Shown here one piece after another: positions 1 to 16,927 of a DNA stretch of 64,000 bases. The position numbers were made by a program, and so were the translations under genes. The stretch lies in contig JAXHNB010000005.1 in the NCBI GenBank assembly GCA_034520945.1, positions 608,001-672,000 of the forward strand, read 5' to 3'. The stretch's first letter is position 1, and each line of letters opens with the position of its first letter. The stretch is from Trueperaceae bacterium. Lineage in GTDB: Bacteria > Deinococcota > Deinococci > Deinococcales > Trueperaceae. The notes under the pieces are model-generated. The model was given only the letters and a program-made list of their open reading frames with translations. It searched no databases and was not told the DNA's origin.

Positions 1-410
1 ATCCGCTTCTTCCCGCGCCAGGGGATCCGTGTGTGGGGCGCGCGCACCGTGGCGGATTCCGCCAGCGAGTGGCGCTACCTGAACGTGCGGCGCCTGTTCA
101 ACATGGTCGAGGAGTCCATCGCCAACTCCACCCGCTGGGTGGTGTTCGAACCGAACGACCGCACGTTGTGGAAATCGATCACGCGCGACATCGGCGCGTT
201 CCTGACGATGCTGTGGCGGGACGGCGCCCTCGCGGGCGCGTCGCCGGAGGAGGCGTTCTTCGTGAAGTGCGACGACGAGACCAACCCCCAAGAGGTGATC
301 GACGCCGGGCAGGTCGTCACCGTCATCGGCATCGCGCCGGTCAAGCCGGCCGAGTTCGTGATCTTCCGCATCGGCCAGAGCGCGGGCGAACCGAAATCGC
401 TTCGGCGTGA
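1..410 (+). CDS. Phage tail sheath family protein, C-terminal part (eCIS Afp2/3/4-like); 5'-truncated, probable frameshift ~385
   Basis: GIRVWGART...WRYLNVRRLF..IEESI...WVVFEPND..LW..I...FFVKCDDETNP...IGIAPVKPAEFVIFRIGQ is the typical sheath C-terminal domain. The nearest stop (TGA 408-410) is in an adjacent frame, followed by an RBS and ATG 444. Confidence 0.93.
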   Translation, partial: PLLPAPGDPCVGRAHRGGFRQRVALPERAAPVQHGRGVHRQLHPLGGVRTERPHVVEIDHARHRRVPDDAVAGRRPRGRVAGGGVLREVRRRDQPPRGDRRRAGRHRHRHRAGQAGRVRDLPHRPERGRTEIASA

Positions 411-443
411 GCGCCTGACTGCCTGGGGAAGAGGGAAACCGAC

Positions 444-907
444 ATGCCCAGACGAAGCCACCGCCGAAGCGCGCCAGAGTGGACGGATCGATCCGTACCG
501 CGCGTACAACTTCAAGCTCGAGATCCAGGGCGTGACGCGCGGGCACTTCACCGAGTGCGCCGGCCTGAAGATGCGCGTCCACCCCATCCGCTACCGCGAG
601 GGCGGCCTCGCCCAGGCGACCCGGGCGTTGCCCGGCGCCGTCGACTACGGCGAGGTGACCCTCCGCTACGGCCTGACGCAATCCACCGACCTGTGGGACT
701 GGTTCATGACCGCGGTCCGCGGTCGCGTCGAGCGCCGCAACGTGTCCGTTCTGATGCTGTCGCCCGACGGCGTCGACGAGGTGCTGCGCTGGAACCTGGT
801 GGACGCCTGGCCCTGCCAGTGGGAGGGTGCCCCGTTGGACGCGCATGGGCCGCGAAGCGGCGATCGAAACGCTGAACCTCGTCTTCGAGTCGTTGGACCG
901 GAGCTAG
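444..907 (+). CDS. Phage tail tube protein (T4 gp19-like, eCIS Afp1/5-like); frameshifts near 448 and 845
   Basis: DPYRAYNFKLEI.G...GHFTECAGL.....IRYREGG.....LPG.VDYGEVTLRYGLT.S.DLWDW......G.VERRNVSV......EVLRWNLVDAWPCQWEG..LDA, continuing in the next frame as MGREAAIETLNLVFESLDRS* (TAG 905-907). Confidence 0.92.
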
Positions 908-910
908 GCG

Positions 911-1991
911 GTGCGGGCGCGCCACTCGGTCCTGAGGTGGCTGTACGCGGCCTTGGCGTCGCTGCGGTCGTTGCTGGGCCGCGTCCTGCGACGCTTGGAG
1001 CAGGAACTGATGGAGCCGCCGCCGGTCGTGTTCGAGCCGGGCGAGGACCCGGCGACCCCGCATCGTCCGCAGGGGCCGCCCTCCCGGCCGCCCGAGCATT
1101 GGCTGCGCACGGTCCGCGAGCGCGCGCCCTACCTGCTGCGCGACGACGCGGGGGCACGGGGCTCGACCCGCAGCAGCGCACGTCCGTCCGCGACGAAGCC
1201 GCCGGATGGCCGCCACCACCGACCGCACCGTCCGCACAGCGCCGCACGGACGGTGCCGAACCGCCCGGGGCGACGCCCGGCGACACGACGCGTCCTGCAC
1301 GCCCGTGGGGCGACGACCTGTACCGCCGGCGGCACTTCCGGCCCGTACCGGCACCCGGGACGGCGCAACCGTCGGACCCGTCCCGGCAGGGTGAGGCGCC
1401 GCCGCCCGACAGCGCGGACGGGCCCAGCGACGCGGGCGCACCCGCCGACCATGCCGGCACCCACGTGCAGGACGCGCAGTCCAATCGCCCGTGGCACGTG
1501 GACCACCTGGACGCGCCGGAAGCACCGGTGGACGCGCAACGCATGGCGACCGACGCTACCTCCGCGTCGTCGGAGCCGCACCCGGACGCAGCGGACGCGA
1601 CGCCGCGCGGGACGGGTGCGTACCGGCGCCTCGAGCCGCTACAGGACGCCACCTCCGGTCCGAACGACGAAGAGGCCGCCGCCGAACACGAGGTCCACTC
1701 GGACGCACGGACCGCAATCCCGTGGGACGCGACCGTGTGGGCGATGGACGACGCAGACTCGCTGGCGCGGCCCGACCACGGGTGGCTCGACGCTCCAGCG
1801 GGGGGCCGGCGGGTGCAGCCGGAACCGTATGCGCACGCCATCGTCCACCCCATGGCGGACCCGTGGCCGCCCCTCCCACCGTCCGCGCCCGCAGTCGAAG
1901 CGACCGAACCGGTCGTGCGCCGCACCTGGGACCCGCGCGCCGGCAGCAGCGCGTGGCCCGCGAGCAGGAGGGACGCACATGGAACGGGTGA
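911..1991 (+). CDS. CIS-associated hypothetical Pro/Ala/Asp-rich protein (reconstructed across frameshifts)
   Basis: Helical N-terminus with PPEHWL..VRERAP.LL, a long low-complexity middle, and a C-terminus DPWPPLPP...RRQQRVAREQEGRTWNG* overlapping the next start. Confidence 0.5.
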
Positions 1992-2746
1992 CGTTCCTCG
2001 TCGAGGCGACCGGGCAGCGCCTGGGGTGCCTCTTGAACCCCGCCACCTTGACGCTGACGCGGCGTGCGGGCGTGCGGTCACGCAGCGGCGCGGCAGGCGC
2101 CATCGCCAGCCGCGGCCTCAGCGACGATCCGCTCATCGACGTCGGGGGCGGCGTGACCGAACTCGAATTGGATCTCCTCTTCGACGTCGGCGTGGCCGGA
2201 TCGACCGTCGTCAGCCTCGACGTTCGCGACCTGACCCGGCCGCTGTGGGACCTGGCCGAGACCCACGCCCGCCTGGAAGGCGGCCGGCCGCCGGTGGTGC
2301 AGTTCTTCTGGGGCGAACGCGAGGGGTTTCCCGGCGTGGTGCTGGCGGTGGCGGAACGGTTGGAACGCTTCGACGCCGAGGGCGTGGCGGGCCGGTCCTG
2401 GCTGCGGATGCGCCTCCGCCGCATGGCGCACCCAGGCGGTCCGCGCGACCGCAGCGGCACCGACCCGCTGGACGGCATCCGCACCGCCACCCGCGACGGG
2501 GCGGGCGGCGACGGAACCGTGGTGATGGGACCGCTGGCCGGCGGCGCAGCAGGCGCGGGCAATGAGGGAGAGCGACCCGTCGCGGGCGTCAGCCGACTCG
2601 ACGCCGTCGCCGCGCTGCACTTCGGCGACGCCACCCTGTGGCGATGGATCGCGGAGGCCAACGCCCTCGACGACCCGGCCCGCGTCGACCCCGACACGCG
2701 CCTGCGCCTTCCCTCCCTGCGGCCGGGGGGCGAGGAGCGACCGTGA
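1979..2746 (+). CDS. CIS tube-initiator / Afp7-like protein with C-terminal LysM-like motif
   Basis: ATG 1979 after AGGAGG. MERVTF...CLLNP.TL...GGG.TELELDLLFD...PPVVQFFWG....GVV..VAERLERFDAEG...RSWLRMRL and C-terminal RLDAVAA.HFGD..LWR.IAEAN.LDDP......LRLP. Confidence 0.8.
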   Translation: MERVTFLVEATGQRLGCLLNPATLTLTRRAGVRSRSGAAGAIASRGLSDDPLIDVGGGVTELELDLLFDVGVAGSTVVSLDVRDLTRPLWDLAETHARLEGGRPPVVQFFWGEREGFPGVVLAVAERLERFDAEGVAGRSWLRMRLRRMAHPGGPRDRSGTDPLDGIRTATRDGAGGDGTVVMGPLAGGAAGAGNEGERPVAGVSRLDAVAALHFGDATLWRWIAEANALDDPARVDPDTRLRLPSLRPGGEERP

Positions 2747-4227
2747 GCGTCCCCGCAGCGCTTCCCCGCGCCGAGATACGGCTGGCCGGCCGGCCGCTGG
2801 AGGACGAGGCGGCGGCAACGGTGAGCGGCCTGCGGATCCGGCAGGTGCTGAATGTGCCCACCCTGTGCGAAATCACCCTTACCGACCCGCCCGCCCACCT
2901 CATGGACGACCCGCGGCTGCAGCCCGATCAGGGCGTGCGGGTGGGCTTCGCGCAGGACGGCGCACCGGCGTTCGACGGCCGGCTGGTCGCCGTCGAGCAC
3001 GCCTTCCACGGCGCGGCCGGCCGGCGGATGCACCTCCGGGCGTACGACCGGCTCCACCAGCTCCGCCGCAGCCGCCACCTGCGGGTCCTTGCCGAGCCGA
3101 CCCTGCACGCGTTGGCACAGGCCCTGGCCGGACCCGCCGGCCTGCGGGTCGAAGGCGGCGAGGACGCGGAGCTGCCGAGCCAGTCGATTCAGCACCGGCA
3201 GTCCGACCTGCAGTTCCTCGTCGATCACGCGGGACGCTGCGGCTACTACCTGGCGTGCGAGGGCGACACGCTGCGCCTGATCCGCCTGGACGCCGCCGCG
3301 CCGCCGCTCGAGCTGGACCGGGACGCGGGCCGCTGGGAGGCGCGCTTCGAGCGGACCGTCGACGGCGACGCCGCCGCGACGGAAACCGCCGGGTGGGACG
3401 CCGGTACGCTGGAACGCCGTGCAGGACGGTGGACGCCGAACGCCATCGGCCGACGGGGCGCCGACGCTGTGGCGGACCAACCGGGTGCTGCGCAGCGGCC
3501 GTGAACAGACCCAGGACGCCCGCGCCGAGATGGAACGGCGCGACGCCGGCCGGCTGGTGATCTGGGCCACCGGCCCGGGCGACGCCCGAATCCGGCCCGG
3601 CCAGGCGGTGCGGCTGCACGGCTTCGGCGCGGCGCTGCACGAGGCGCAGGCCGTCACGGACGCCGAGCACACCCTGGACGAGCGGGCGGGCTACCTCACC
3701 GAGTTCAGCACCGACCCGCCGCGCCTCCAGGTTCCGCCCGAACCGATGGAGGTCACCGTCGCGCGCGTCGTCGACAGCGACGACCCTGTCGGCACCGGCC
3801 GCGTCCGCGTGGCGTTGGAGGCGTTCGGCGACGTCACCACCGGCTGGTTGCCGGTGATGATCGCCGGCGCCGGGGCGGACAAGGGGTTGACGATCTATCC
3901 CGAGGCGGACGACGTGGTGCTGGTGCTGCTGTGCGGGACCGATCCCTCCGCCGGCATCGTGCTGGGCGGCCTGTACGGGACCCGCCCCAGCGCCGACGCC
4001 GACATCGCCGGTCGCCGCCCGCGGCCGTACGCGCTGCGCACCCCGGCGGCCAGCGGCTGCGCCTGGACGACCACGGCCAGCTGGTGCGCCTGGAGAACGC
4101 CGACGGCAGCTACCTGGAGATGAGCGCAGACGAGGTGGTGCTGCACGCCGCCCGTGACCTCCGCATCGAAGCGCCGGGCCGCACCCTCACCCTCGGGGCC
4201 GACGCGATCGACATGAGGAGTCGCTAG
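2743..4227 (+). CDS. VgrG-like spike/hub protein (late-control D plus gp5 OB-fold; Afp8-like); frameshifts ~3470 and ~4045
   Basis: GpD-like features (FDGRLVAVEH, AYDRLHQLRR, Q..QSDLQFL, GDARIRPGQ.V) followed by the OB-fold signature ARVVD.DDP...GRVRV......TGWL.V...GAG..KG...YPE..D.VLV......GIVLGGLY; ends TAG 4225-4227. Confidence 0.85.
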
Positions 4228-4567
4228 GTGAAGCTGTTGAGCGAGGACGCCCGCCTGGCGTGCCGCCACCGCGGCGTGATCATTGTGCCGCCTTCCCAGG
4301 GGCTGGTCACCGTGAACGGACGCCGCGTGCTGGTCGAGGACGACCCGGTCGGCCAGCGCATCGCGGGGTGCCCCAACGCCGGACCGACGATCAAGCCGTG
4401 CACCACCACCCTGAAGGTGCAGGACGGCTACGCCGCACTGCTGCGCATCGACGGGCGTCGCGCCTGCCTGGACGCCGTCACCGGCCTCACGGACGGCACG
4501 CCGCCCGGTACCGTCGCCTACCTGGTCGATACACCTGGCCAGGGCTGGGTCGAGGTGCAGGCGATGA
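4228..4567 (+). CDS. PAAR-like/DUF4280-like spike tip protein (reads in-frame into the next gene in this assembly)
   Basis: About 112 aa with CRH, GCP and KPC metal-ligand-like motifs plus V.VNGR.VLV and IDGRRACL; lies directly after the spike gene. Confidence 0.6.
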
Positions 4568-5040
4568 CCGCGCCGCCCGATCGGGCCTGGCGCTTCGTCC
4601 ACCCAGCGGTGGACGTGCCCGCCAGCATCGCGGAACGGACGCCCGGCCTGCACGTCGATGCGACCGGCGGCATCGACGTGGTCGAGGGGGACGCCTGCGT
4701 GCGCCAGTCGATCCTCCTGCTCCTGTCCACCGCCCGCGGCGAGCGGGTCATGCGGCCTGACTACGGCTGCGACCTGAACCGGTTGGCCTTCGCCCCCAAC
4801 GACGCCACCACCGCCGGCCTGGCCATCCACTACGTTCGCAGCGCCGTGGCGCGGTGGGAGCCGCGCGCGCGGGTGCTGCGCGTCGATGCCGGCCGCCGCC
4901 TCTTTCACGGTCCCGGCCTCGGCGCGGTGGACGATCCCGAAGCCCGCCTGGACGTGGTGCTGGACTACCAGGTGCGGGACAGCGGCCACGCCGACCGCCT
5001 GGCGCTGAGCCTGGACTTGGCGGAAGGATCGATCGCGTGA
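4564..5040 (+). CDS. gp25/GPW family baseplate wedge protein (Afp9-like)
   Basis: VRQSILLLLST.RGERVMRPDYGCDL..LAFAPND.TTAGLAIHYVR.AV.RWEPR is the gp25 family signature. Confidence 0.9.
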   Translation: MTAPPDRAWRFVHPAVDVPASIAERTPGLHVDATGGIDVVEGDACVRQSILLLLSTARGERVMRPDYGCDLNRLAFAPNDATTAGLAIHYVRSAVARWEPRARVLRVDAGRRLFHGPGLGAVDDPEARLDVVLDYQVRDSGHADRLALSLDLAEGSIA

Positions 5041-7611
5041 GCCTGCGCCCCCCGGACCTCGACGACCGCGACTTCCAGGCGCTGATGCGCGAGGCGCTGG
5101 CCCGCATCCAGGACGCGAGCCCGCGCTGGACCGACCACTCGCCCAGCGATCCCGGCATCGTGCTGTTGGACGCCTTCGCCTACCTGACCGAGATGATGAT
5201 CTACCGCCTGAACCGGGTGCCGGAGAAGGCGTACGTCGAGTTCCTCCGCCTGATGGGCGTGACGCTGCGCCCGCCGGCGGCGGCCAAGGTCCGGTTGCGG
5301 CTGACGGGGGACGCCGAGGGGACGGACGCGCGGACGGTGCCGCGCGGCACCCGCGTCACGATCGGCCAGGGACTGGACCAACGGGACGCACCGGTGTTCG
5401 TCACCACCGAGGACGCTACCGTGGCGCCCGGTGCGACGGCGCAGGTCACGGCCCTGCACGCCGAGACGGTCGCGGCGGAACGGGTGGGGACCGGTACCGG
5501 CCGGCCGGGCCTGAGCCTCACGCTGTCGCGCCCGCCCATCGTGGCGCCCAGCGGCGACGGGGCCGACCTGGTGATCGGCGTCGAGGCTGGCGAGGAGGAG
5601 GCAGGCGGCGACGCGGGGCGCGCGCCCGCCATTCGGCACGACGACCGCACCTACCGAGTCTGGCGGGAGGTCGTCAGCTTCGCGGAAGCCCACGAGGACC
5701 GCTTCGTCTACCTGGCCGACCGCGCGTCGGGCCGCATTACCTTCGCCCCCGCCGTGCACGAGAGCGAGGCGGGCCGCACCGTCGCAGGCGAAGCGACCGC
5801 CTTGGCGGAGGTCGTGCCGGCCGGCCGCGAGGTGCGGGCCTGGTACCGCCGCGGCGGGGGCCGCGACGGCAACGTGCGCGCCGGCGCGCTGATGGCCTTC
5901 GTGGACGACGTGCCCGGGGTGGCGGTCACCAACCCCGAAGCGGCCACCGGCGGGCGCGACGCGAGATCGTTGCCCAACGCGCTGCAGCGCGGTCCCCAAG
6001 CGCTTCACGCGCTGGAGCAGGCCGTCACTGCGGGACTTCGAACGAATCGCCCAGCGCGCCGGCGCGGTGCGACGCGCCAAGGCGTTCGCGGAGGCCGCCC
6101 TGTGGCGACACGGCGTGCCCGGCACCGTCCACCTGGTGCTGGTGCCCGACCTCGACCCGGGGCGCACCGCCCAAAGCGGCGCGACGCTGGACGCCCTGAC
6201 GGCCGCCCAGACCGGGCAGGCCCTCAGTGACGTGCAGAACGACGTCGACGCCCGCAGGCCGCTCGGCACGCGCTGCCGGGTGGCGTGGGCCCGCTACAAG
6301 CCGCTCCGGATCGGCGCGCGGGTGGTGGTGTTCGCGGAGGAGGACGCCGCTGCGGTCGGCACGCGCCTGGCGGGGCGCTTGAACGAACTGCTGGACCCGC
6401 TGCGCGCCCGGGACTTCGGCGAGCCCATGCGGGCGTCCGACGTCTACGACGTGCTGCTGCGCGAGCCGGGCGTTCGCTACGCCGACCACGTGCACCTCGA
6501 GGTGGACAGCGCCCCCGACGCCGAGGTGCACGCCGTCGCGACCGACCGTTTCCAGCCCGGCACCTGGTACGCCGGCGCCGGCGGCGCGACCTACCGGACG
6601 CTGGACGACGCCGACGGTTGGGAGCGCGTGCGGGTGGACGAGGCGTTCACGGTGGCCGGCGTCTTCCCGCACCCGTCGCGGCCGGGCATGGTGGCGGTGC
6701 TGCTGCAGGACGAACCGCAGGGCCGCTGGCGGCTGGCGGTGAGCGATGACTGCGGCGAGTCGTGGCGCAGCAACGAGGCCGAACTCAGCTTCCGCGTCTA
6801 CGACGTCGCCTGGCTGGACCGGACCGGCGACGCGGTGCTCCTTCTCGCGACGCGCCAGGGACTGTTCCAGCTTCCGCTGTCCGACACGTCGTTGACGCCG
6901 GTTCAGGTGCCCGTCGATCCGGACAAGACCGACCGCGGCTTCTACGCTGTCGCCGTGTCGGCCGGCGTGCGTGGCCGCACGTTCGTGGCGGTCGCTGCGG
7001 ACCAGTTGGGCGGGGTATTCCTGTCCGATCAGGGCGGCGGGGACGGCACCTTCCGGGCGTTCGGCCTGGACGGGACGGACGTGCGCGTCCTGCAGATGCA
7101 CGCCGACGGGCCCCGCCTGTACCTGTGGGCCGGCGCCGCCGCGGTCGGGGGCGAGCCGGGCGACGGCTGCTTCCGCGGCGCGAGCTGCGCCTCGGTGAGG
7201 ACGCCCCTTCCCAGTGGCGGCAGTACCGCCAGGGCTGGCGCGGCGGCAGTTGCTACCAACTGGCCGTCGCCGGCGGGGCGCTGTACGCCGCCACGCACGC
7301 AGGGGGCGCGCTGCGGCTGGACGCCGGCAGCCGGGAGGCCGCCTGGGAGGGGCCGCCCCTGGACTGCGGGCTGCCGCTCCGCGACGCCGAACGGTTGCTG
7401 CACCCGGTCCGCGCCGTCGCCGCGCGGGGCGGCGACGCCCCCCGCCTGCTGGCGGGCGGGCACGCCGGCGTCCACCGCAGCACGGATCAGGGCCGGACCT
7501 GGCAGCCCGTGTCGCGACGAACCTACGCGGACAAGGTGACGGTGCCGCCGGCGTGGCTGTTCTGCCCCGGCGCCGCACAAGGTCGAGGTGGTGCGCGACG
7601 ATGAAGTCTGA
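5037..7611 (+). CDS. Baseplate J-like assembly protein (Afp11-like) with inserted Asp-box beta-propeller; frameshifts ~6030, ~7180, ~7570
   Basis: PDLDDRDFQ.L..EA..RI....P.WTDHSPSDPGIVLLDAFAYLTE.MIYRLNRVPEKAY..FL.L.G; YRRGGG..GNV; VTNPEAATGGRD; AVTA.DFE. Asp-box-like motifs SDDCGESW and STDQGRTW. Ends PHKVEVVRDDEV* (TGA 7609-7611). Confidence 0.88.
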
Positions 7612-8179
7612 GCGCATCCTCGCGTTGCTGCCGCAGGCGTTCCAGTCCTCCGCCTGGAGGGGTCCCCGCTGCTGGGCCTCCTGGCGGCCATGGAGGGGAT
7701 GCACGCACCAAGCGAAGCCGTTCTGGACGACCTGGACGGCTACTTCGACCCGCGGCGCGCCCGCCTGCGCTCGGCGGCCTACCTGGCGTCCTGGCTTGAT
7801 CTCGACCGCATCGTGCGCGCCGCGGGGCCGCACGGCCGGAGCGCCGCCGTGGCACTGCCGACCGGACGCCTGCGCGAACTGACCGCCGCTGCCGCCGACC
7901 TGTCGCGTTGGCGGGGTACCGCCTACGGCCTGGCGCGCTTCCTGGAGGTCGCGACCGGCGTGCCCGGCTTCGAGGTGGACGACCACGTGCGCGACGCTTA
8001 CGGCGACGTTCGACCGTTCGACGTCGAGGTGCGTGTGCCGGCCGGCGCCGCCGGCCAGCGGGCCGCTGATCGAGACCATCGTCGCCTCGGAGAAGCCCGC
8101 CTACGCGACGAGCACCCTGCGCCTTTTGGAGGGCGAAGGCAGAGGCGACCCCGCGGGTGACGGGGAGCGACCGCCATGA
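7601..8179 (+). CDS. Phage tail protein I-like baseplate protein; frameshifted
   Basis: LLP..FQ...LDDLDGYFDP......YLASWL...RLREL...A..L.RWRGT..GL..FLEVATG...PFDVEV...IETIVASEKPAY; stop TGA 8177-8179 overlaps ATG 8176. Confidence 0.8.
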
Positions 8180-10100
8180 GGACCCCGCTGAGCGTCACGG
8201 TCACGCCGGCCTCGCTCACGCTTTCGCGTGTCGGGCCGCGGATCGAGGCGGACGAGACCACCTTCACCGTCACCAACACGGGCGCGCGACGCGTGACCGC
8301 CCGGGCGGCGCTGGAGCCGCTGGGCGGGGCCGAGCCGGGCTGGCTGTCGCTGCGGGGCGAGGCGCAGCACGACTTCGCACCCAACGCGACGCACGCGTTC
8401 ACGGTGCGGGTGGCGCCACCCCCGGACGCCCCGGCGGGCCGGCACGCCTTCCGCCTGAACGTCGTCGACGTGCACCATTCGGACGAGGGCGAGGTGGAGG
8501 GCCCGGAGGTGGCGTTCGAGGTTCCCCCCGCCCCGACGGAGGACGGGCCGACGATGCCGCCGATGGCTGTGGATGGCGATCGCGGCGGTCGTGCTGCTCG
8601 GCGGTGCGGCGGCGCTCGCCGTCGCGTTCTGGCCGTTCGGGTCGGTCAACGAGGCGCCGAGCCTGGCCGACGTCGAGAACGTCGCGCACCCTGCAGGGCG
8701 AAGCGGCCGAGGTGTCCCTCGCCATCCGCGACGAAGATCCGGGCACCGTCGCCGTCGCGGTCCGCTCCAGCGACGACACCCTCGTGGCGGCGGACGACCT
8801 CGAGGTGGCCGGCGAGGGCGCGGACCGCCTGCTGCGCGTCACCCCCGGCGCGGTTCGGGGTGGGGCGCGCCGTCCTCACCGCGATCGGTGGCGCGGACGC
8901 CGAGGGCCTGGAGGGCAGCACCTCGTTCGAGGTCGAGGTGCGCCGGCCGTTCGACGTCCAACTGCCGGCGCTGAGCGCCAGCGACGGCAGCGAGGGGTCG
9001 TTCTACGGGACGTCGGTCGCGCTGGACGGCGATCACGCCGTCGTCGGTGCCTCGTTCGACGGCGGCGTCGCGGAGGCGGCGGGAGCCGCCTACCTGTACC
9101 GGCTGGACGACGGCGTCTGGACCGAGTGGAGAAGCTCACCGCGAGCGATGCAGACGAGCTGGACCACTTCGGCATGAGCGTTGCGCTGGACGGCGATCAC
9201 GCCATGATCGCAGCCCGCTTCGACGCAGCGGTGCCGCCGACGACGCGCGGTGCCGACTCGACGCCTTCCAGCGGCAGGGCGACACCTGGCGCGAGGTCGC
9301 CAAGCTCACCGCCCGCGACGCCGAGGAGGACACGCTGTTCGGCTACCGACGTGGCCCTGGACGGGGATCGGGTCCTGATCGGCGCCCTCGACGCACGCAG
9401 GCCGGCGATGACGCCGGCTCGGCCTACCTCTTCGAGCGCGATGGCGACGGTGGCGGCAGGCGCAGAAGCTCACCGCCAGCGATGCCGCAGCCGGCGACCG
9501 CTTCGGGTCGGACGTGGCGCTGGACGGCGACATTGCGCTCATCGGCGCCCTCAGCCACGACGGGGCTGCCGAAGATGCGGGTGCGGCGTACGCGTTCCAG
9601 CGCCAGGGCGACGCCTTTCGCGAGGTCGCCAAGCTCACCGCCGACGAGGCGCGCGAGACGCGTCGTTCGGTGGGCCGGTCGCGCTGGACGGCGACACGGC
9701 GCTCATCGCCGCCTCGGGCGAAGAGCGCGAGGGCGAGGGGACGGGCGCCGCGTACGTCTTCGAGAGGAACGGCGACGCATGGCGCGAAGTCGCGAAGCTC
9801 ACCGCGCGCGACGCCCGCGCCGGGCATTTCTTCGGCAACTCCGTGGCGCTCGACGGCGACTACGCCCTCGGTGAACGGCGGCGCGTTCCTCGCGGAGGAT
9901 CCGGGCTCCTCGGTGTACGTCTACCGGCGCGACGACGACACCTGGCGGGCGCTCCGCCAACTCACGGCGCGCGAGGTCGGCGCCGGCGGCATTTCGGGAT
10001 AGCCATCGCGCTCGACGGTCCACGGCTCCTGCTGAGCGCGCCGTCCGACGACATGGGTGGAGACGAGGCGGTGGGAGCGGTGTATGCGTTCCAGGACTAG
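8176..10100 (+). CDS. Single-pass membrane protein, paralogue 1: shared Ig-like N-module + TM + Ig-like domain + seven FG-GAP repeats; many frameshifts
   Basis: N-module (FTVTN.G...WL.L.GE...DF..N.THAFTVRVAPP..AP.GRH.FRLNVVDVH..DEGEVEGPEV.FEV), TM AIAAVVLLGGAAALAVAFWPFG, then repeats KLTA.DA...FG..VALDGD.A.IGA; ends VGAVYAFQD* 10100. Confidence 0.75.
8965..10097 (+). repeat. Seven FG-GAP (integrin-alpha-type) repeats, ~165 bp period
   Basis: Repeat units begin near 8970, 9130, 9300, 9465, 9630, 9795 and 9960; most contain AAGCTCACCGC and GCGCTGGACGGCGA-like words. Confidence 0.85.
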
Positions 10101-10130
10101 ACATTCATGCCCCTTCACGGAGGTGGCCTG

Positions 10131-11253
10131 ATGGCTGCTTCGTTCGCGATCACGGCGTCGCCGGCGTCGTTGGCGTTGTCGCGTGGGAGGGACGGCAAGG
10201 TCGTGCCGCAGGAGGTCACGTTCGCGGTGACGAATGCCGGGGTTCGCGTACGGTGACGGGCCGGGCTGTGGTGGAGCCACTGGGTTCCGGTGGCGTCGGG
10301 CTGGTTGGAGGTGTTGGGGGAGCGGGAGCGGGATTTCGAGGCGAACGGGACGCCATACCTTTTCCGTGCGGGTGGCGCCGCCGGCGGGCGCGCCTCCTGG
10401 GCGGCACCGGTTTCGTTTGAACATGGTGGACGTGCACCATCCGGACGAGGGCGAGGTGGAGGGGCCGGAGGTGGGGTTCGAAGGTGCCGCCGGCCCCGGC
10501 GGAGGACGGTGCCGTCGTTGCCGCGCTGGCTGTGGATGCGCCATCGCGGTGCTGGTGGTGGCAGGCGGCGTGATCGCGGCCGTCCTGGTGCTGGGCAACG
10601 ACCCGCCCGACGCCGACGCCGGCGGCGATCGTGAGGTCGAGGTGGGAACGACCGTCACGCTCGACGGCAGCACGTCCAGCGATCCGGACGGGGACGCGGT
10701 GGCGTTCTCATGGGCGTTGGAACGGCGACCCGACGGCAGCGGCTGCGGCCCTCGCGGACGCGCGACACGCCCTCGCCAAGCTTCACGCCGGACGTCGCCG
10801 GCACGTACGTGGCGGCCTTGACGGTGTCCGACGGGTCGCGCCCGGCCAGCGATAGCATGAGCGTCACGGCGCGCGAACCGCCCAACGAACCCCGGGCCTG
10901 TCGCCCATTGCCCAGCAGCGTACAGAGGAGGGGGCGCCGCTCGAGGTCGCGTTCGAGGTCGCCGACGAAACCCCGAGAACGATGACGATCGAGGCGTCGG
11001 CCAGCGACCCGGCCCTGCTGCCCGCTGGCAGCGTCGAGGTCCTCGGCGACGGTGCCGAGCGGTCGCTGCGCATCACGCCACCGGCAGGCGCAGCCGGAAG
11101 CACGGAAATCACCGTGGTGGCGCGGGACGCAGCTGGATTGGAGGACAGCGTCACGTTCGTGCTTGAGGTCACGCCGCGGCCCCTTTCCCGGGAATCTGGG
11201 ACGACGCCCCGCGGGACGACGCCCTCTGGGGACCACGACCACGCCGCTCGTAA
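10131..11253 (+). CDS. Single-pass membrane protein, paralogue 2: shared N-module + TM + PKD-like domain + Ig-like domain + Trp/Asp tail; frameshifted
   Basis: GGAGG then ATG 10131 MAASFAITASPASLALSRG; TM AIAVLVVAGGVIAAVLVLG; PKD-like NDPPDADAGGD..V.VG.TVTLDGS.SSDPDGD...FSW...FTPDVAGTY...LTVSDG; probable end GIWDDAPRDDALWGPRPRRS* (TAA 11251-11253). Confidence 0.7.
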
Positions 11254-11268
11254 AGCAAGGAGGCCCGA

Positions 11269-12260
11269 GTGAACCCGAACACCCGCAAGGTTCTACGCCT
11301 GATCGTCCCGGTCGCCGTTCTCGGCATCTGGGCGTTCGCCATCGACCTTCCGCATCTGTTCTCACCGGAAACGACGATCAGCTCCAGCGAAGTCAACGAG
11401 AACTTCCAGGTGCTGGCCGGCGCGATCACGACCTTCGAAGACGCCATCGCGATCGACGACGATGGGAACGTCGGCATCGGCACCGGCAGCTCCGGCTTCC
11501 AGCTCGACGTGGTGGGCGGGATGCTCGCCACCGACGACGACCGTGCCATCATCGGCCGCCAGGGCACCAGATCCTGCGCTGGAACGTACGGTGTCGGCGG
11601 ATGCGCGACCACGGGGAACGGTGTCGTCGGTCGCGCCGGTGGCGGCATTGGCGTGCTCGGCGTCAGCGACACGCGCGGCGTGGTCGGCACCCAAGGGGAG
11701 ACGTCGTGCGCCGGCAGCTACGCCGTGGGCGGGTGCGGCACCACGGAGCGACGGCATCTACGGCCGGAGCCGCGACGGACGTGCAGGCGTGTTCGATGGA
11801 ACGGTGCAAATCAACGGCAACCTCAGCGTGTCGGGCACCAAGAGCTTCCGCATCGACCATCCTCTCGATCCCGACAACCGGTACCTGCACCACTTCGCTG
11901 TCGAATCCAACGAGGTGCTGAACGTCTACAGCGGCACCACGAGCCTGGATGCGGACGGCACGGCCGTCGTGCGATGCTCGGACTACTTCGAAGCGCTGAA
12001 CACGGACGTTCGTTACTGAGCTCGCCCATCGGCAGGCCATGCCGAACTTGCACGTGTCGGAGAAGTTCTCGCAAGGGCGCTTCGCCGTAGCCGAGGGACA
12101 GCCCGGTGCGGACGTCTCTTGGCAAGTCACGGCGGTCCGCAACGACGCAGGCCTGCGGGGCGGCAGGCTGCCCGTGGAGTTGGACAAGCCCGTCTCAGAA
12201 CGCGGCAGCTCCGAGGTGGACGGCCGTGGTACGGAGCCTGTCGCGAGGCGCGCGCCGTGA
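11269..12260 (+). CDS. Secreted fibre-like protein with Gly-rich beta repeats and C-terminal intramolecular-chaperone-like domain; frameshifts ~11745, ~12015-12040
   Basis: AAGGAGG RBS; signal-peptide-like N-terminus ending AFA; FSPETTISSSEVNENF; GNVGIGT; GV.G repeats; KSFRIDHPLDP.NRYL.H..VES.E..NVYSG...LD..G.A...DYFEALN...VSWQVTAVRND. Confidence 0.65.
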
Positions 12261-12291
12261 GGCCGTCGCCCGGCCGACGAGGTACGGCCTG

Positions 12292-13460
12292 ATGGCGGCT
12301 TCGTTCGCGGTCACGGCGTCGCCGGCGTCGTTGGCGTTGTCGCGTGGGAAGGGCGGCGCGGTCGTGGCGCAGGAGGTCACGTTCGCGGTGACGACGATAC
12401 GGGCCGCGCGACGGTGACCGGGTCGGGCCGCGGTGGAGCCGCTCGGTTCGGTGGGGGTCGGCGTGGTTGGAGGTGTTGGGGATCGGGAGCGGGATTTCGA
12501 GGCCAACGGCACGCACACCTTCACCGTGCGGGTCGCGCCGCCCGCGGACGCGCACGCCGGGCGGGCATCGTTTTCGCTTGAACGTGGTGGACGTGCATCG
12601 TCCCGACGAGGGCGAAGTGGAGGGACCCGAGGTGGATTCGAGGTGCCGCCGGCCCTTGTCGACGACGGGCCGGCGGTGCCGCGCTGGCTGTGGATCGCCA
12701 TCGCGGCGGTGGTGTTGGTCGGGGGTGCGGCGGCGCTGGCCGTGGCGTTCTGGCCGTTCGGTCCGAGCGAACGCGAGGTGCCCGGTCTGGCTGGCATGAC
12801 CGTCGCCGAGGCGACGGAGACGGCCGAAGGGGCCGGCTTCACGCTCGAGGTCGCCGACGCGCCGCGCCCCAGCGACGAGGTCGGGGCCGGCAGGGTCGCC
12901 GCGCAAGAGCCGGAGGCGGAGACGCTGGCCGAGCCGGGCAGCCCGGTCGTCGTGACGCTGGCTGGCGTACCGGACGTCGTGGGCATGGAGCGCGCCGACG
13001 CCGAACGCGCCCTGCGGGATGCGGGCCTCGCCGTGACGGTGGCGGGCCTGAGGGTCACCGGCTCGCACGCGCCGCGGCCGGGTCGTCTCGCGACCCGGGC
13101 CCGTCCGACGACGTCGAGCCCGGCGCGGAGGTCACCCTTCGTCGTCGAGGGGGTCGATGTGCCCCCATGGTGGGCGAGCACATCGACGACGCGCTCCGCA
13201 CGCTGGAGGGACCGGGCTGTCGTTCGAGCTGAACTCGGACTTCCGGAGCCGCCGTCCGGCCGGGACCGTCACCAGGCAGTCGATCGATGGCGGCGCAGCC
13301 GTGGATCCGGGAACCACCGTCTCGCTCTCCGTGGCAGCCACCTTCGGTGGCGGGTACCTGGAGGAGATCGACCCGGCCCTTCTCCGCCGCTTGAACGTTC
13401 CCCTTGGTCCCGGCAATGGACCGATTCCGCCGTTCGACTTCGAGCCTGGTCACGCGCTGA
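12292..13460 (+). CDS. Single-pass membrane protein, paralogue 3: shared N-module + TM + about three PASTA domains; frameshifted, end approximate
   Basis: MAASFAVTASPASLALSRG; PRWLWIAIAAVVLVGGAAALAVAFWPFG; PASTA units VPGLAGMTVAEA...EGAGF...G.VAAQEP, VPDVVGM..ADA..AL.DAGL and VGEHIDDA...L...G...GTV.RQS...G..V..GTTV.L.VA. Confidence 0.72.
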
Positions 13461-13484
13461 ACCCTGGCCGCGAGGAGGAACGCC

Positions 13485-13885
13485 ATGTCCCTGAATTCTT
13501 CCAAGATGTCGCGCACCTTCTCGGCGTGATCGCCGGATTCGCCGCCGGCGCGGTGGCCCTCGTCGACCTCATCGTGGTACCGGACAGTTCGCGTATGGCG
13601 TCTGGGCCGGCGGCGCTTCCTGGCGGGGCGCCGCACGCTGGCGGTGATCGCGGGAGCGCCGGCCAGTCCGCCGCGGCGGGCGCGAGCCCTGCCGGAGGTG
13701 GGCGCCGAGTACACCCGCGTCCCGCGGACTGGGTCACCTACATCGTCATGGCGCCCTTCGTTCGTCGGCATCGTCGTGACGTTCTTGGCCCCGCCGTGGG
13801 GGTAGCGCCCCCCGCCCGGCGGGTCACGAGATCCCGGCGCACCGGTTCCGGGCTGGGCGCGGGCGCGACGCCGCAGTGCCGGTGA
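13485..13885 (+). CDS. Small hypothetical membrane protein (frameshifted, boundaries approximate)
   Basis: GAGGAGG RBS before ATG 13485; hydrophobic segments LLGVIAGFAAGAVALVDLIVV and WVTYIVMAPFV. Confidence 0.4.
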
Positions 13886-14389
13886 AGCCGCTCCACCTGC
13901 TGATCCTCGTCGCCGGTGGTCGCGATCATGGCGTACCTGCTCACGCTGGCGATCGGGTCGCGGACCCGCAGCGACGAGGGGCCCCAGGGGCGCAACGGCG
14001 CACCTTCGACGTCGACGCGTCCTACCCGTTGCTCGGCAGCCTCGGCCGCTGGTTCAGCCCCGAGATGGAGCTTTCCGCAGGCGGCTCGGGTACGACCTGA
14101 GCGGTGGTCAGCGGGTGGAGCTTCCGCTGCCCGCGGAGGAACGACGCTACCGCCGCCTGGAACCTCGCGGCGACCGAGCCGCCGGCGCCCAGCGCGACCG
14201 CGTTGACGATCACCTACGCCCCGAGAACCAGCGGCAACGAGGACTACCCCGACGAACTCACCGAGACCAGCTCCTGGCCGGAAGACGCACGAGACCTGCC
14301 CGACGCGACCTTCCTGGTGTTGGACGGCGGGGGGACGCTCACCGTCGTGAACCGGTCGACCCGGCCCGCGGCGGATCGAGGTGCGGTGA
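13882..14389 (+). CDS. Small hypothetical membrane-anchored/exported protein (frameshifted, approximate)
   Basis: MKPLHLLILVA/VVAIMAYLLTLAIGS N-terminal anchor; downstream coding-like segment LTITYAP...DATFLVLDGGGTLTVVN. Confidence 0.4.
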
Positions 14390-14416
14390 GGCGGCACACC
14401 GCGGCCGGTACGCGCC

Positions 14417-15128
14417 TCAGGCCCGGTCCAACCGCAACGCCTTCAGCACCGGCACCACCGAGCCGAACAGCAGCACCACGCACCAGACCGCCGCCAGGAT
14501 GCCTACCACGATGGCCGCCACCGCGTCGGTGATGGCGACGAGGAAGCCCGGCACGATCGCGTGCAGGAAGCTCACCACGATGTTGGCCAGCAGCGCGCTC
14601 AGCACCAGCGCCACCAGCCCCTTGTTCTGCACCATCCGCTGGTGCGCCAGCAGCGGCAGGCCGTGTAGCCGAGTACCGGGCGAGGACCAGACCCAGCGTC
14701 GTGGCCGCGGTCCCCGTGGGGAAGCTCGGCGTAGCGCGCGAAGTACACCGCCGTGCCGAACGGCGCCGCGGCCAGGAGCATCACCATCAGGATCAGCAGC
14801 CCCAGCGCCGTCAGGATCATGACGATCGCCCCGAGCAGCATCAGCAACGAGGCCAGCAGCGTCACCACGCCCTGGACGCGCCCGTGCACGCGTTCGGGCA
14901 CGATCAGCGAGGCCAGCATCAACGACAACGTGAGCAGCACCAGCCCGTCCACCAGCGCCATGTACGCGATGCCGCGCCCACGGTGCGCACGTCGCCGTCG
15001 GCCCAGGTCGGAACGATAGCGGGCAACCACGTGGATGCGCCCACCTCGATCAGGATCACGAAGACGGCCAGCACCACGGCCGCCACGAAGAACGGCCGGC
15101 GCAGCCTGTCCGCCACCTGCGTCGTCAC
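14417..15128 (-). CDS. Hypothetical polytopic membrane protein (about 6 TM), frameshifts ~14980 and ~14720-14640
   Basis: Three ORF fragments (14919-15128, 14599-15030, 14417-14635) join into a continuous hydrophobic protein with motifs GRGIAYMALVDG, GRVQGVVTL, PFGTAVYFARY, QNKGLV; TAGCTT -10 lies 6 nt before GTG 15128. Confidence 0.7.
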
Positions 15129-15154
15129 GTACGCAAGCTACCGCGGATGGCGGC

Positions 15155-15574
15155 TCACTTGTCCAGCGGGACGAGCGCGCTCGCGCACGCCCATCGGGGC
15201 GACGTGGGCGACGCGCATTGGCGTGCCTGAGCGCCCTTCGCCCGCACCGGCGTGAACACGTTCAGCGTCTCCGTCGGCCCGGGCGCGTCCTCGGGCACGT
15301 ACGCGGCGTGCGCGATGCCGCCCGGGATCGACAGCACCTCGCCCGCCGCCAGGTGCGTCTCGCCGTCGTCGAACACGAACACCAGCGCGCCGGCCTGCAC
15401 CAGGGTGAGCTGCTCGGCGGGGTGGGCGTGTCGCGGAAACGTCGTGCCCGGCTCGTAGCGGTACGCGATCAGCTCCAGGCGCTCGCCGGTCATGCGGCGG
15501 CGGGTCACGCCGCTGCGGGGTGTCTCGCCCGGCAGTTCGTCCAGGCGGACCTTCCGGGGCCGCGGTGCGTTCAC
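15155..15574 (-). CDS. Cupin domain protein (C-terminus uncertain)
   Basis: GTG 15574 overlaps the upstream stop; cupin motifs FPRHAHPAEQLTLVQAG and GEVLSIPGGIAH. Confidence 0.85.
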   Translation of the reverse strand: MNAPRPRKVRLDELPGETPRSGVTRRRMTGERLELIAYRYEPGTTFPRHAHPAEQLTLVQAGALVFVFDDGETHLAAGEVLSIPGGIAHAAYVPEDAPGPTETLNVFTPVRAKGAQARQCASPTSPRWACASALVPLDK

Positions 15575-16927
15575 GCCGCCACCTCGCCCGTCACGCGCTC
15601 CAGCGCCGCCGCCATGCCCTGCACGAGCACCTCCACCTCGTCCTCCGTGATCACGAACGGCGGCGCCAGCAGTGCGTGATCGCCACGCCGGCCGTCCACG
15701 TGCCCGCCGCCCTGATAGACGTACACGCCTTCGTCCAGGCAGGCGCGGGCGAAGCGGCCGCGCACGTCGGCTTCGGCCGGGAACGGCGTCATGCCGTCTC
15801 GTTCCGCGACGAACTCGACGCCCAGCAACAGTCCGCGGCCACGGATGTGACCGACGTGCGGGTGGTCGCCGAGGGTCTCCTGCAGGCGGCGTTTCAGGAG
15901 GGCGCCCAGCTCGGTGACGCGGGGGAGGAGCCCCTCGCGTTCGATTACGTCGATGACGTGACTGCCGACGGCGCAGCTCAGCGGGTTGCCGGCGAAGGTG
16001 TGGCCGTGCGGGAAGCCGCCCGGCGCGCGGCGCACCGCCTGGTCGTGCGCGTCGGGCACCAGCACCGCGCCGAGGGGCGCGTAGCCGGCGGAGAGGCCCT
16101 TGGCGGTGGTGATCATGTCCGGCGTCACGCCGGTGTGCTGCATCGCCCACCAGGCGGCCGGAGCGGCCGTTGCCGCTCATCACCTCGTCCGCGATGAACA
16201 GCACGTCGTGCCGGTCGCAGATCTCGCGGATGCGGGGCCAGTACCGCTCCGGCGGGTGCCGGCCGGGGGCGGAGGAGCCGACGACCGGTTCGGCGATGAA
16301 CGCCGCCACGTTCTCGGGCCCGACGTCCTGCAGACGCGTCTCCAGGTCGCTGGCGCACTCGACGTTGCAGCTGCTCGGTTCCTTGCCGAAGGGGCAGCGC
16401 GCGCACGAGGTCGGCGCGATCATCGGTTGCGCCTGCATCATCGGCGCGAACGGGTCGCGCCGTTGCGGGTGGCCCGACACGGACAGGGCGCCGAGGGTGG
16501 CGCCGTGGTAGCTGGTGCGGCGCGTCACCACCAGCGTCTTGTGCTCGAACCCGCGGGCGCGCTGCACCTGGCGGGCCAACTTGAGCGCCGTCTCGGTCGC
16601 CTCGCTGCCGCCGGAGGTGAACAGCACGCGGTCCAGGCCGGCGGGGGCGCGGGCGGCCAGGCGTTCGGCCAGCGCTTCGGCTTCGGGGGTGACGAACTTG
16701 CTGGGGTGCGCGAACGCCAGCCGGGACGCCTGCTGGGCCATCAGCGCCGCGATGTCCTGGCGGCCGTGCCCCAGCGAGGCGACGGCGGCGCCGGCGGCGG
16801 CGTCCAGGTAGCGGCGGCCGTGCTCATCGATCAGCCAGGTGCCCTCGCCGCGCACGATCCGGATGGGCGCGTGGGCGGGGTCGCGCAGGAACAGGGGGGA
16901 GGCGCGGGTGTCGGTCGGGGTCGTCAT
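15571..16927 (-). CDS. Class III (PLP) aminotransferase; one frameshift ~16150
   Basis: [63 protein letters not shown], then in the next frame [36 protein letters not shown]. Confidence 0.92.

Follow-up and report, generated by a model that had tools for sequence, protein, structure and literature searches.

A tandem array of predicted membrane adaptors with a shared Ig-like inner module in a contractile injection system locus of a Trueperaceae bacterium

The closest described systems are those of CisA and Cis13. CisA of Streptomyces coelicolor is described (eLife 2025, PMC12237407) as a bitopic protein with its N-terminus inside and its C-terminus outside the cell, encoded with a cytoplasmic contractile injection system (CIS) and needed for its firing and contraction. 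Its cytoplasmic part of ~285 residues is given there as largely unstructured, and its outer domain as solute-binding-like, a predicted pentamer and a proposed sensor; binding of CisA to Cis11 was predicted but could not be shown. CisA is the only such factor known in Streptomyces, and a 2026 study describes Roseiflexus as having no close cisA homologue. Cis13 (All3316) belongs to the thylakoid-anchored CIS (tCIS) of Anabaena (Nat Microbiol 2022, PMC8894136). Its gene lies beside cis12, its N-terminus binds the baseplate, and a transmembrane helix is predicted at residues 122-154; removal of the helix frees the particles, and the C-terminal domain of Cis11 contacts Cis13. According to that description, Cis13 is a trimer with a triple α-helical stalk and no large outer domain, found in filamentous cyanobacteria only. 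Here we analyse a stretch of 64,000 nucleotides (the window; 73% G+C) from contig 5 of the 3.47 Mb, 10-contig genome of a Trueperaceae bacterium, in which three adaptor genes follow the baseplate genes of a CIS (Table 1).

Three-frame translation shows that adaptor genes 1, 2 and 3 have in common a β-rich N-terminal module of 115-120 residues, followed directly in each by a (P/R)RWLW motif and a hydrophobic helix. A search of the bacterium's own genome with the first N-module matched only these three genes, in five pieces (E = 1.7e-81, 7e-25, 1.4e-18, 2e-8 and 3.8e-7). The outer parts differ. Pfam searches with intact pieces identified FG-GAP_2 in gene 1 (E = 8.9e-12 and 6.2e-19), PKD_4 (E = 1.5e-8) and Big_9 (E = 3.8e-6) in gene 2, and PASTA in gene 3 (E = 1.4e-19 and 2.2e-5). 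The PASTA matches comprise one of 70.2 bits with two stretches and one of 24.7 bits in the next frame piece, both above the Pfam cut-off of 23.2. The propeller of gene 1 is of the seven-repeat FG-GAP type, its relative P0004 having seven FG-GAP_2 repeats. The stretch before it has no Pfam match of its own, and is called Ig-like because it is similar to the matching stretch of P0004 and to Big_9 of gene 2. Gene 3 aligns in three frames with residues 1-381 of P0002, which has three PASTA repeats. It represents the adaptor type common to single-copy relatives, as genomes of the same order carry one module-helix-PASTA gene. A first-pass annotation, made from the letters alone, had proposed three genes with a common inner module, a single transmembrane helix and C-termini of Ig plus FG-GAP, PKD plus Ig, and PASTA; this architecture is borne out, the Ig part of gene 1 by similarity. 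The proposed translational coupling of gene 1 to the baseplate I gene fits the ATGA overlap between the TGA of the baseplate I frame (8177-8179) and the ATG of gene 1, provided that this frame is the true one at the end of the gene. The start codons of genes 2 and 3 are preceded by GGAGG- and GAGG-like sites, respectively.

On sequence grounds, the module is a large, unnamed and undescribed protein family. A HMMER search of 1.84 billion representative sequences yielded 1320 clusters at E ≤ 1e-3 and 470 at E ≤ 1e-10. In the 150 matches listed, the module almost always occupies residues ~3-120 of proteins of 107-988 residues, and in the representatives a linker rich in K/R, a motif resembling FPWW and then the helix come next. 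Source databases name these proteins 'hypothetical', 'PASTA domain' and similar. We found no description of the family in the literature searched; the supplementary tables of the tCIS and CisA papers may list related genes. A metagenome scan with P0004 gave one weak and uninformative locus. In five loci (L042, L065, L067, L075 and L087) the same inner module is joined to a Gly-rich, multi-helix hydrophobic C-terminus (..KKGYLA.LLG..), which replaces the FPWW helix and the outer domain.

AlphaFold2, run with a 29-row alignment, predicts the module to be an all-β Ig-like sandwich with a predicted local distance difference test score (pLDDT) of 95. The best matches in two fold searches were Ig-like domains such as PapD/ASH/MSP and FixG_C (Foldseek E = 7.5e-8 to 6fvi; VIA Z = 10-12), which is a generic result; no CIS component was among the rows shown. 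The module thus has its fold in common with the NEW3, CARDB, FixG_C and PapD-ASH-MSP domains, but most of these families are extracytoplasmic or eukaryotic, and none has a link to CIS. Sequence similarity to them is weak: the window module scores 21.2 bits against Pfam NPCBM_assoc, below the curated cut-off of 24.4, NPCBM_assoc matches at E ≤ 1e-3 occur in 11 of 139 relatives, and FixG_C matches are likewise weak. No PDB chain matched the module at E ≤ 1 (profile search) or E ≤ 10 (search with a cyanobacterial member).

The adaptors should be bitopic, with the N-terminus inside, the C-terminus outside and the module in the cytoplasm. Four features suggest this topology. No module open reading frame (ORF) has a hydrophobic N-terminal stretch, in line with the first-pass claim that there is no signal peptide. 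In 108 of 113 module ORFs, the next element after the module is a helix with a strongly hydrophobic stretch of 19 residues. The residues flanking the helix are biased in charge, with 240 K/R before it versus 177 after, and 98 D/E before it versus 154 after. Finally, all C-terminal partner domains are of extracytoplasmic types, lectin- or peptidoglycan-binding ones among them. PASTA is present in 65 of 139 representatives and in 43 of the 113 locus ORFs; the other partners are PD40, Laminin_G_3, DUF11, PG_binding_1, F5/8 type C, PAN, Tectonin, PKD, CBM96 and DUF346.

The helix also bears on whether these proteins might instead replace the tail fibres of a released extracellular particle, the N-module binding the baseplate, the helix serving oligomerisation instead of membrane insertion and the C-terminal domains binding targets after lysis. 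Like the Afp13 and Pvc13 fibres of extracellular CIS (eCIS), the adaptors are encoded after baseplate I and end in modular, exchangeable, receptor-binder-like domains. Unlike those soluble fibres, they have a membrane-spanning helix and lack a fibrous shaft, and Pfam searches of the window adaptors and their relatives gave no fibre domain. To our knowledge, described eCIS fibres lack such a helix. A hydrophobic 19-residue stretch with K/R on one side and a Trp-rich motif, conserved in nearly all module ORFs, is typical of a membrane span, and Cis13, the only fibre-like protein described as having a helix, is reported to be a membrane anchor (PMC8894136). We regard a released particle as very unlikely.

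The likely partner of the module is the baseplate J protein. In this lineage J carries a C-terminal extension of ~350 residues, which in the window corresponds to ~6530-7600, the C-terminal third of the gene. The extension of a relative is predicted by AlphaFold2 to be a β-propeller (pLDDT 88); GH74/BNR-type propellers are its best folds, and its Pfam match, to Sortilin-Vps10, is weak. The only PDB sequence match of J, S. coelicolor Cis11 (9gtp, 652 residues), is confined to the N-terminal part. We searched 364 related genomes, all labelled as the same genus, family or order, for J and the module. Full-length J (profile positions 4-881) is present in exactly those 12 genomes that contain the module, the window genome included. 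In 51 further genomes J is shorter (profile positions ~15-520, E about 1e-50) and the module is absent; the remaining 301 lack both. As the J search used a stricter first look, these counts are floors.

Because J and I of the window are broken, we predicted the complex with intact proteins of L024, a relative from the same family, using residues 228-827 of J, the I protein and residues 1-125 of the module, with alignments of 30-31 rows each. All three runs scored 0.74, whereas the best of three controls reached 0.00; at least 96% of contacts were common to the runs, and the pLDDT of the partner was at least 84. The confident contacts fall entirely on the J propeller (residues 624, 649, 669-674, 705-706 and 722-723), and I takes no part in them. 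On the module side they involve residues 45, 47, 65-66, 97, 99, 104-106 and 108. Conservation is high on both sides of the predicted interface: Asp105 of the module is present in 31 of 31 sequences and Pro104 in 29 of 31, while residues 705-706 of J are Gly-Ser in 30 of 30. In the window, the loop reads (S/P)DEGEVEGPEV in each of the three module copies. The conserved Pro-Asp loop of the module is therefore predicted to dock on the J propeller. As far as our searches show, no similar complex has been solved, which makes it unlikely that the prediction merely reproduces a known structure. The first-pass annotation had envisaged an interaction of the module with the baseplate; the model agrees and places the contact on J, the protein read there at 5037-7611, with no contribution from I.

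We then asked how closely the module is associated with CIS genes. In 10 of 11 loci from the related genomes, the module is immediately preceded by gp25 and J in the same orientation; the eleventh is on a short contig. A scan of genome contigs with the single window module found no relative; searching GTDB species genomes with a 7-row alignment gave 55 loci. They come from Chloroflexota, Acidobacteriota, Myxococcota, Verrucomicrobiota, Actinomycetota (Thermoleophilia, Gaiellaceae, Solirubrobacterales), a cyanobacterium, a metagenome-assembled genome of Thiotrichaceae, and others. Profiles for sheath, tube, VgrG, J and I detected CIS genes flanking the module in 37 of the 55. Of all 66 loci, 46, representing at least seven phyla, have J, I and the module together, and I usually ends just before the module gene. 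A module ORF is present in 64 loci: 33 carry a single copy, 19 carry two, eight three, two four and two five. Tandem arrays of 2-5 copies are found in 26 of 36 CIS-linked loci outside the order; the array of three in the window is thus one case of a common pattern. The link of the module to CIS proposed in the first-pass annotation agrees with these counts and with the propeller-bearing J in all 12 module-containing genomes.

The least probable explanation, in our judgement, is that the adaptors are ordinary envelope sensors travelling with a CIS island, or remnants of a locus in decay, functionally unconnected to the machine. It could appeal to the 18 of 55 loci that have no CIS gene within 10 kb and to the many frameshifts in the window copies. 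However, nine of these 18 orphan loci are in six assemblies whose other copy is CIS-linked, and full-length J is present elsewhere in six of the eight remaining orphan-locus assemblies. Nor would a passenger be expected to keep the order J-I-module across many phyla, to co-occur with the propeller in 12 of 12 genomes versus 0 of 352, or to have invariant residues at the predicted interface. The frameshifts are considered below.

The sheath of a related locus is closest to that of the Streptomyces cytoplasmic CIS (8bky/9gtp; E = 1.8e-90), compared with about 1e-49 for PVC/AFP and 1e-45 for tCIS. Together with the match of J from a related locus to Cis11 only, this places the system among the Streptomyces-type (IId-like) CIS, and its own location is predicted to be cytoplasmic. 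Baseplate I gave only a weak PDB match (9gtp_E, E = 0.068). This kinship matters for a further possibility, in which docking is unchanged and the anchors keep the baseplate at the membrane, while firing is directed outwards in the manner of type VI secretion: the outer domains recognise a neighbouring cell or surface, and the spike passes through the envelope of the producer into a target without killing the producer. Tectonin, F5/8C, PAN, Laminin_G_3, PKD and propeller domains are of receptor-binder kinds, the arrays of 2-5 variants resemble tail-fibre diversification, and the anchor gene occupies the position of a tail-fibre gene after baseplate I. On the other hand, the nearest solved relatives are cytoplasmic CIS that kill the producer, PASTA (in 43 of 113 ORFs) and PG_binding_1 point to the cell's own wall, and two or three PASTA repeats are unlikely to extend past a thick wall. 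Outward firing is unlikely, although less so than a released particle.

How do the adaptors compare with CisA and Cis13? In logic they are like both, and in position they are like Cis13. As with CisA, they are single-pass proteins whose N-terminus is predicted to be cytoplasmic, encoded in the CIS cluster after baseplate I. Unlike CisA, they have an inner part that is a folded Ig-like domain of 115-120 residues, and outer parts made of FG-GAP, PKD/Big_9 or PASTA domains. The first-pass annotation had given CisA an Ig-like domain, which does not agree with the published description of an unstructured N-terminus and a solute-binding-like outer domain (PMC12237407). It is this description, and not a sequence comparison, that sets the adaptors apart from CisA. 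The Cis11 of Streptomyces, at 652 residues, has no propeller, whereas J of this lineage carries one that is predicted to receive the module. The resemblance to Cis13 lies in a gene beside a cis12-type gene and in an N-terminal part followed by a helix, here at about residues 125-147; binding to the baseplate is, for the adaptors, a prediction of the model. They differ from Cis13 in their single Ig-like sandwich, large variable outer domains, tandem paralogues and occurrence in many phyla. Cis13 was absent among the PDB matches of the module at the thresholds given above and among the 50 best rows of the two fold searches. The folded Ig docking module, dedicated J propeller, exchangeable outer domains, paralogues and wide range distinguish the adaptors from CisA and Cis13 alike.

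Starting from what was observed in silico, namely the family, its architecture and synteny, the co-occurrence with the propeller and the predicted interface, we consider it probable that the adaptors serve a cytoplasmic CIS as interchangeable anchors or sensors in the membrane, docking on the propeller of J. Topology, actual binding and a role of the outer domains in the timing or triggering of firing are what we infer beyond this. In the proposed mechanism, bitopic adaptors would tether a cytoplasmic, Streptomyces-related CIS to the inner face of the cell membrane. The Ig-like N-module would insert its invariant Pro-Asp loop into the β-propeller at the C-terminus of J, both partners being apparently peculiar to this CIS lineage. 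The helix would cross the membrane, and the variable outer domains (PASTA, FG-GAP and PKD/Ig in the window; lectin and peptidoglycan-binding domains elsewhere) would bind ligands of the wall or surface. Because the docking loop is common to the paralogues, they could fill the J copies of one baseplate interchangeably, and several paralogues may thus provide several anchoring or sensing specificities for one machine. A more far-reaching version, possible but more tentative, is a receptor-gated machine, in which exchangeable arrays of bitopic receptors pass the binding of outside ligands (wall fragments, glycans, the surfaces of neighbours) across the cell's own membrane and thereby trigger firing. 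The first-pass annotation had likewise suggested an intracellular, membrane-docked CIS with interchangeable adaptors, which is supported at the level that computation allows; that the adaptors couple envelope or external cues to docking or firing, as it also proposed, is more tentative. It had named an extracytoplasmic module, a wide spread in genomes without CIS genes and a lack of baseplate interaction as findings that would contradict it; instead the module is predicted to be cytoplasmic, is linked to CIS and is predicted to bind the baseplate.

Several points weigh against docking adaptors. Binding, topology and localisation all rest on predictions, and the charge bias across the helix is modest. 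The modelled J and I of L024 are 40-47% identical to the broken J and I of the window. In the calibration of the prediction tool, 116 of 157 solved complexes and 2 of 215 mismatched pairs attain the mark passed here, counts that are only roughly valid here, since we used our own alignments and three chains. The Pro-Asp loop is present in 97 of 113 module ORFs, but the 55 loci were drawn with a pattern from this very loop; the sample therefore cannot show how many family members lack it. The CIS profiles were built from orthologues of one order. Added to the orphan loci are two of the eight checked assemblies that have no J at all, one of which rests on a marginal module match. Finally, the window's own adaptor genes are broken in the deposited sequence.

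The first-pass annotation had stated that frameshifts hide the adaptor genes, and these are real in the deposited sequence. From ~5000 to 15000, nearly every gene shows repeated frame changes on three-frame translation. When P0314, an intact relative of 637 residues, is aligned frame-aware to 8176-10097, 533 of the 637 residues are identical (84%), at the cost of 12 changes of frame. Genes 2 and 3 contain several frameshifts each, and the window J contains at least two: in a tblastn search, intact L024 J covers residues 1-814 in three frame pieces, propeller included. Short-read contigs were available from three public DNA runs of two studies; they are near-identical to the window, have a depth of 2-5 and cover parts of the stretch only. 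These contigs lack or add single bases at 8683 (in both studies), 10287, 10353, 11263, 11748 and 13447. At 10287 and 10353, in gene 2, a single base is missing from them. The differences at 8683, 10287, 10353 and 11748 coincide with frame changes of the window. Elsewhere in the genome rpoB is intact, long ORFs with a high G+C content at third codon positions (GC3) cover only 61% of the sequence, and there are 148 gaps of ≥2.5 kb. Broken frames thus occur in patches genome-wide, one of them at about 5040-15570 of the window, and gene calls in such patches are unreliable.

Given that an intact relative reads through and that short-read contigs are without the offending bases, the frameshifts in the three adaptor genes are most likely indel errors of the assembly and not decay. 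The same short-read differences, and the existence of intact relatives at 84% and roughly 70-90% identity, count against the decaying locus considered above. We also examined a pseudogene reading and rejected it as the main explanation, in view of the patchy broken frames across the genome; rpoB is intact nonetheless.

Table 1. Features of the CIS operon and adaptor array in the window.
Feature	Position	Strand	Basis or remark
Sheath C-terminus and tube	31-2565	+	Pfam
VgrG-type OB domain	3419-4123		Pfam
gp25	4228-5040		Pfam
Baseplate_J domain match	from 4854		Pfam
Baseplate J (Cis11-like) gene	5061..7611	+	tblastn of intact L024 J; Pfam Baseplate_J
Baseplate I (Tail_P2_I / Cis12-like) gene	7601..8179	+	Pfam, translation; two frame changes
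Tail_P2_I domain match	7690-8160		Pfam
Adaptor gene 1: N-module 8176-8535, predicted transmembrane helix ~8564-8632, Ig-like stretch, FG-GAP propeller	8176..10100	+	
Adaptor gene 2: N-module 10131-10500, predicted transmembrane helix ~10525-10595, PKD_4, Big_9	10131..11270	+	end uncertain
Interleaved fourth gene, unrelated to the adaptors	11269..12260	+	two frameshifts; G+C 0.68
Adaptor gene 3: N-module 12292-12660, predicted transmembrane helix ~12685-12753, PASTA repeats	12292..13460	+	

The start of the window falls inside the CIS operon, as judged by Pfam matches. Its first frame, an open one of 844 residues, contains both the C-terminal domain of the sheath and a tube domain of the gp19 type. 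Related loci have one gene for the sheath and another, in a different frame, for the tube, and the joined frame is probably another indel error near the junction. The fourth gene, interleaved between adaptor genes 2 and 3, did not figure in the first-pass account. It has no Pfam match and 140 relatives, some of which carry the name 'trimeric autotransporter adhesin' in a source; P0151, an intact relative of 330 residues, is about 90%, 71% and 89% identical to the three frame pieces of the gene. No counterpart was found in the other 66 loci fetched. Downstream of the adaptors, 14429-15110 on the minus strand holds a frameshifted homologue of a conserved 223-residue protein without a Pfam match, and related loci have it in the corresponding place and orientation; an M23 peptidase gene follows the gene for this protein in the second family of the order. 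Next to it, also on the minus strand, one open frame (15155-16927) combines a class-III aminotransferase domain with a cupin domain and may be two genes fused by a frame error.

The family described here bears on how a cytoplasmic CIS is recruited to the membrane and on what triggers it. Its predicted docking site, which pairs an invariant Pro-Asp loop with a propeller of the baseplate, is concrete and can be mutated. The family also brings a modular outer repertoire and a clean genomic signature, and it makes the question of anchoring and triggering testable outside Streptomyces. It also suggests that part of the CIS filed as 'extracellular' are membrane-docked. The exchangeable outer domains are of potential interest for re-targeting such machines. 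If the receptor-gated version were true, these adaptors would turn the trigger principle of tail fibres inside out, and would provide a general answer to how such a machine finds the membrane and decides to fire.

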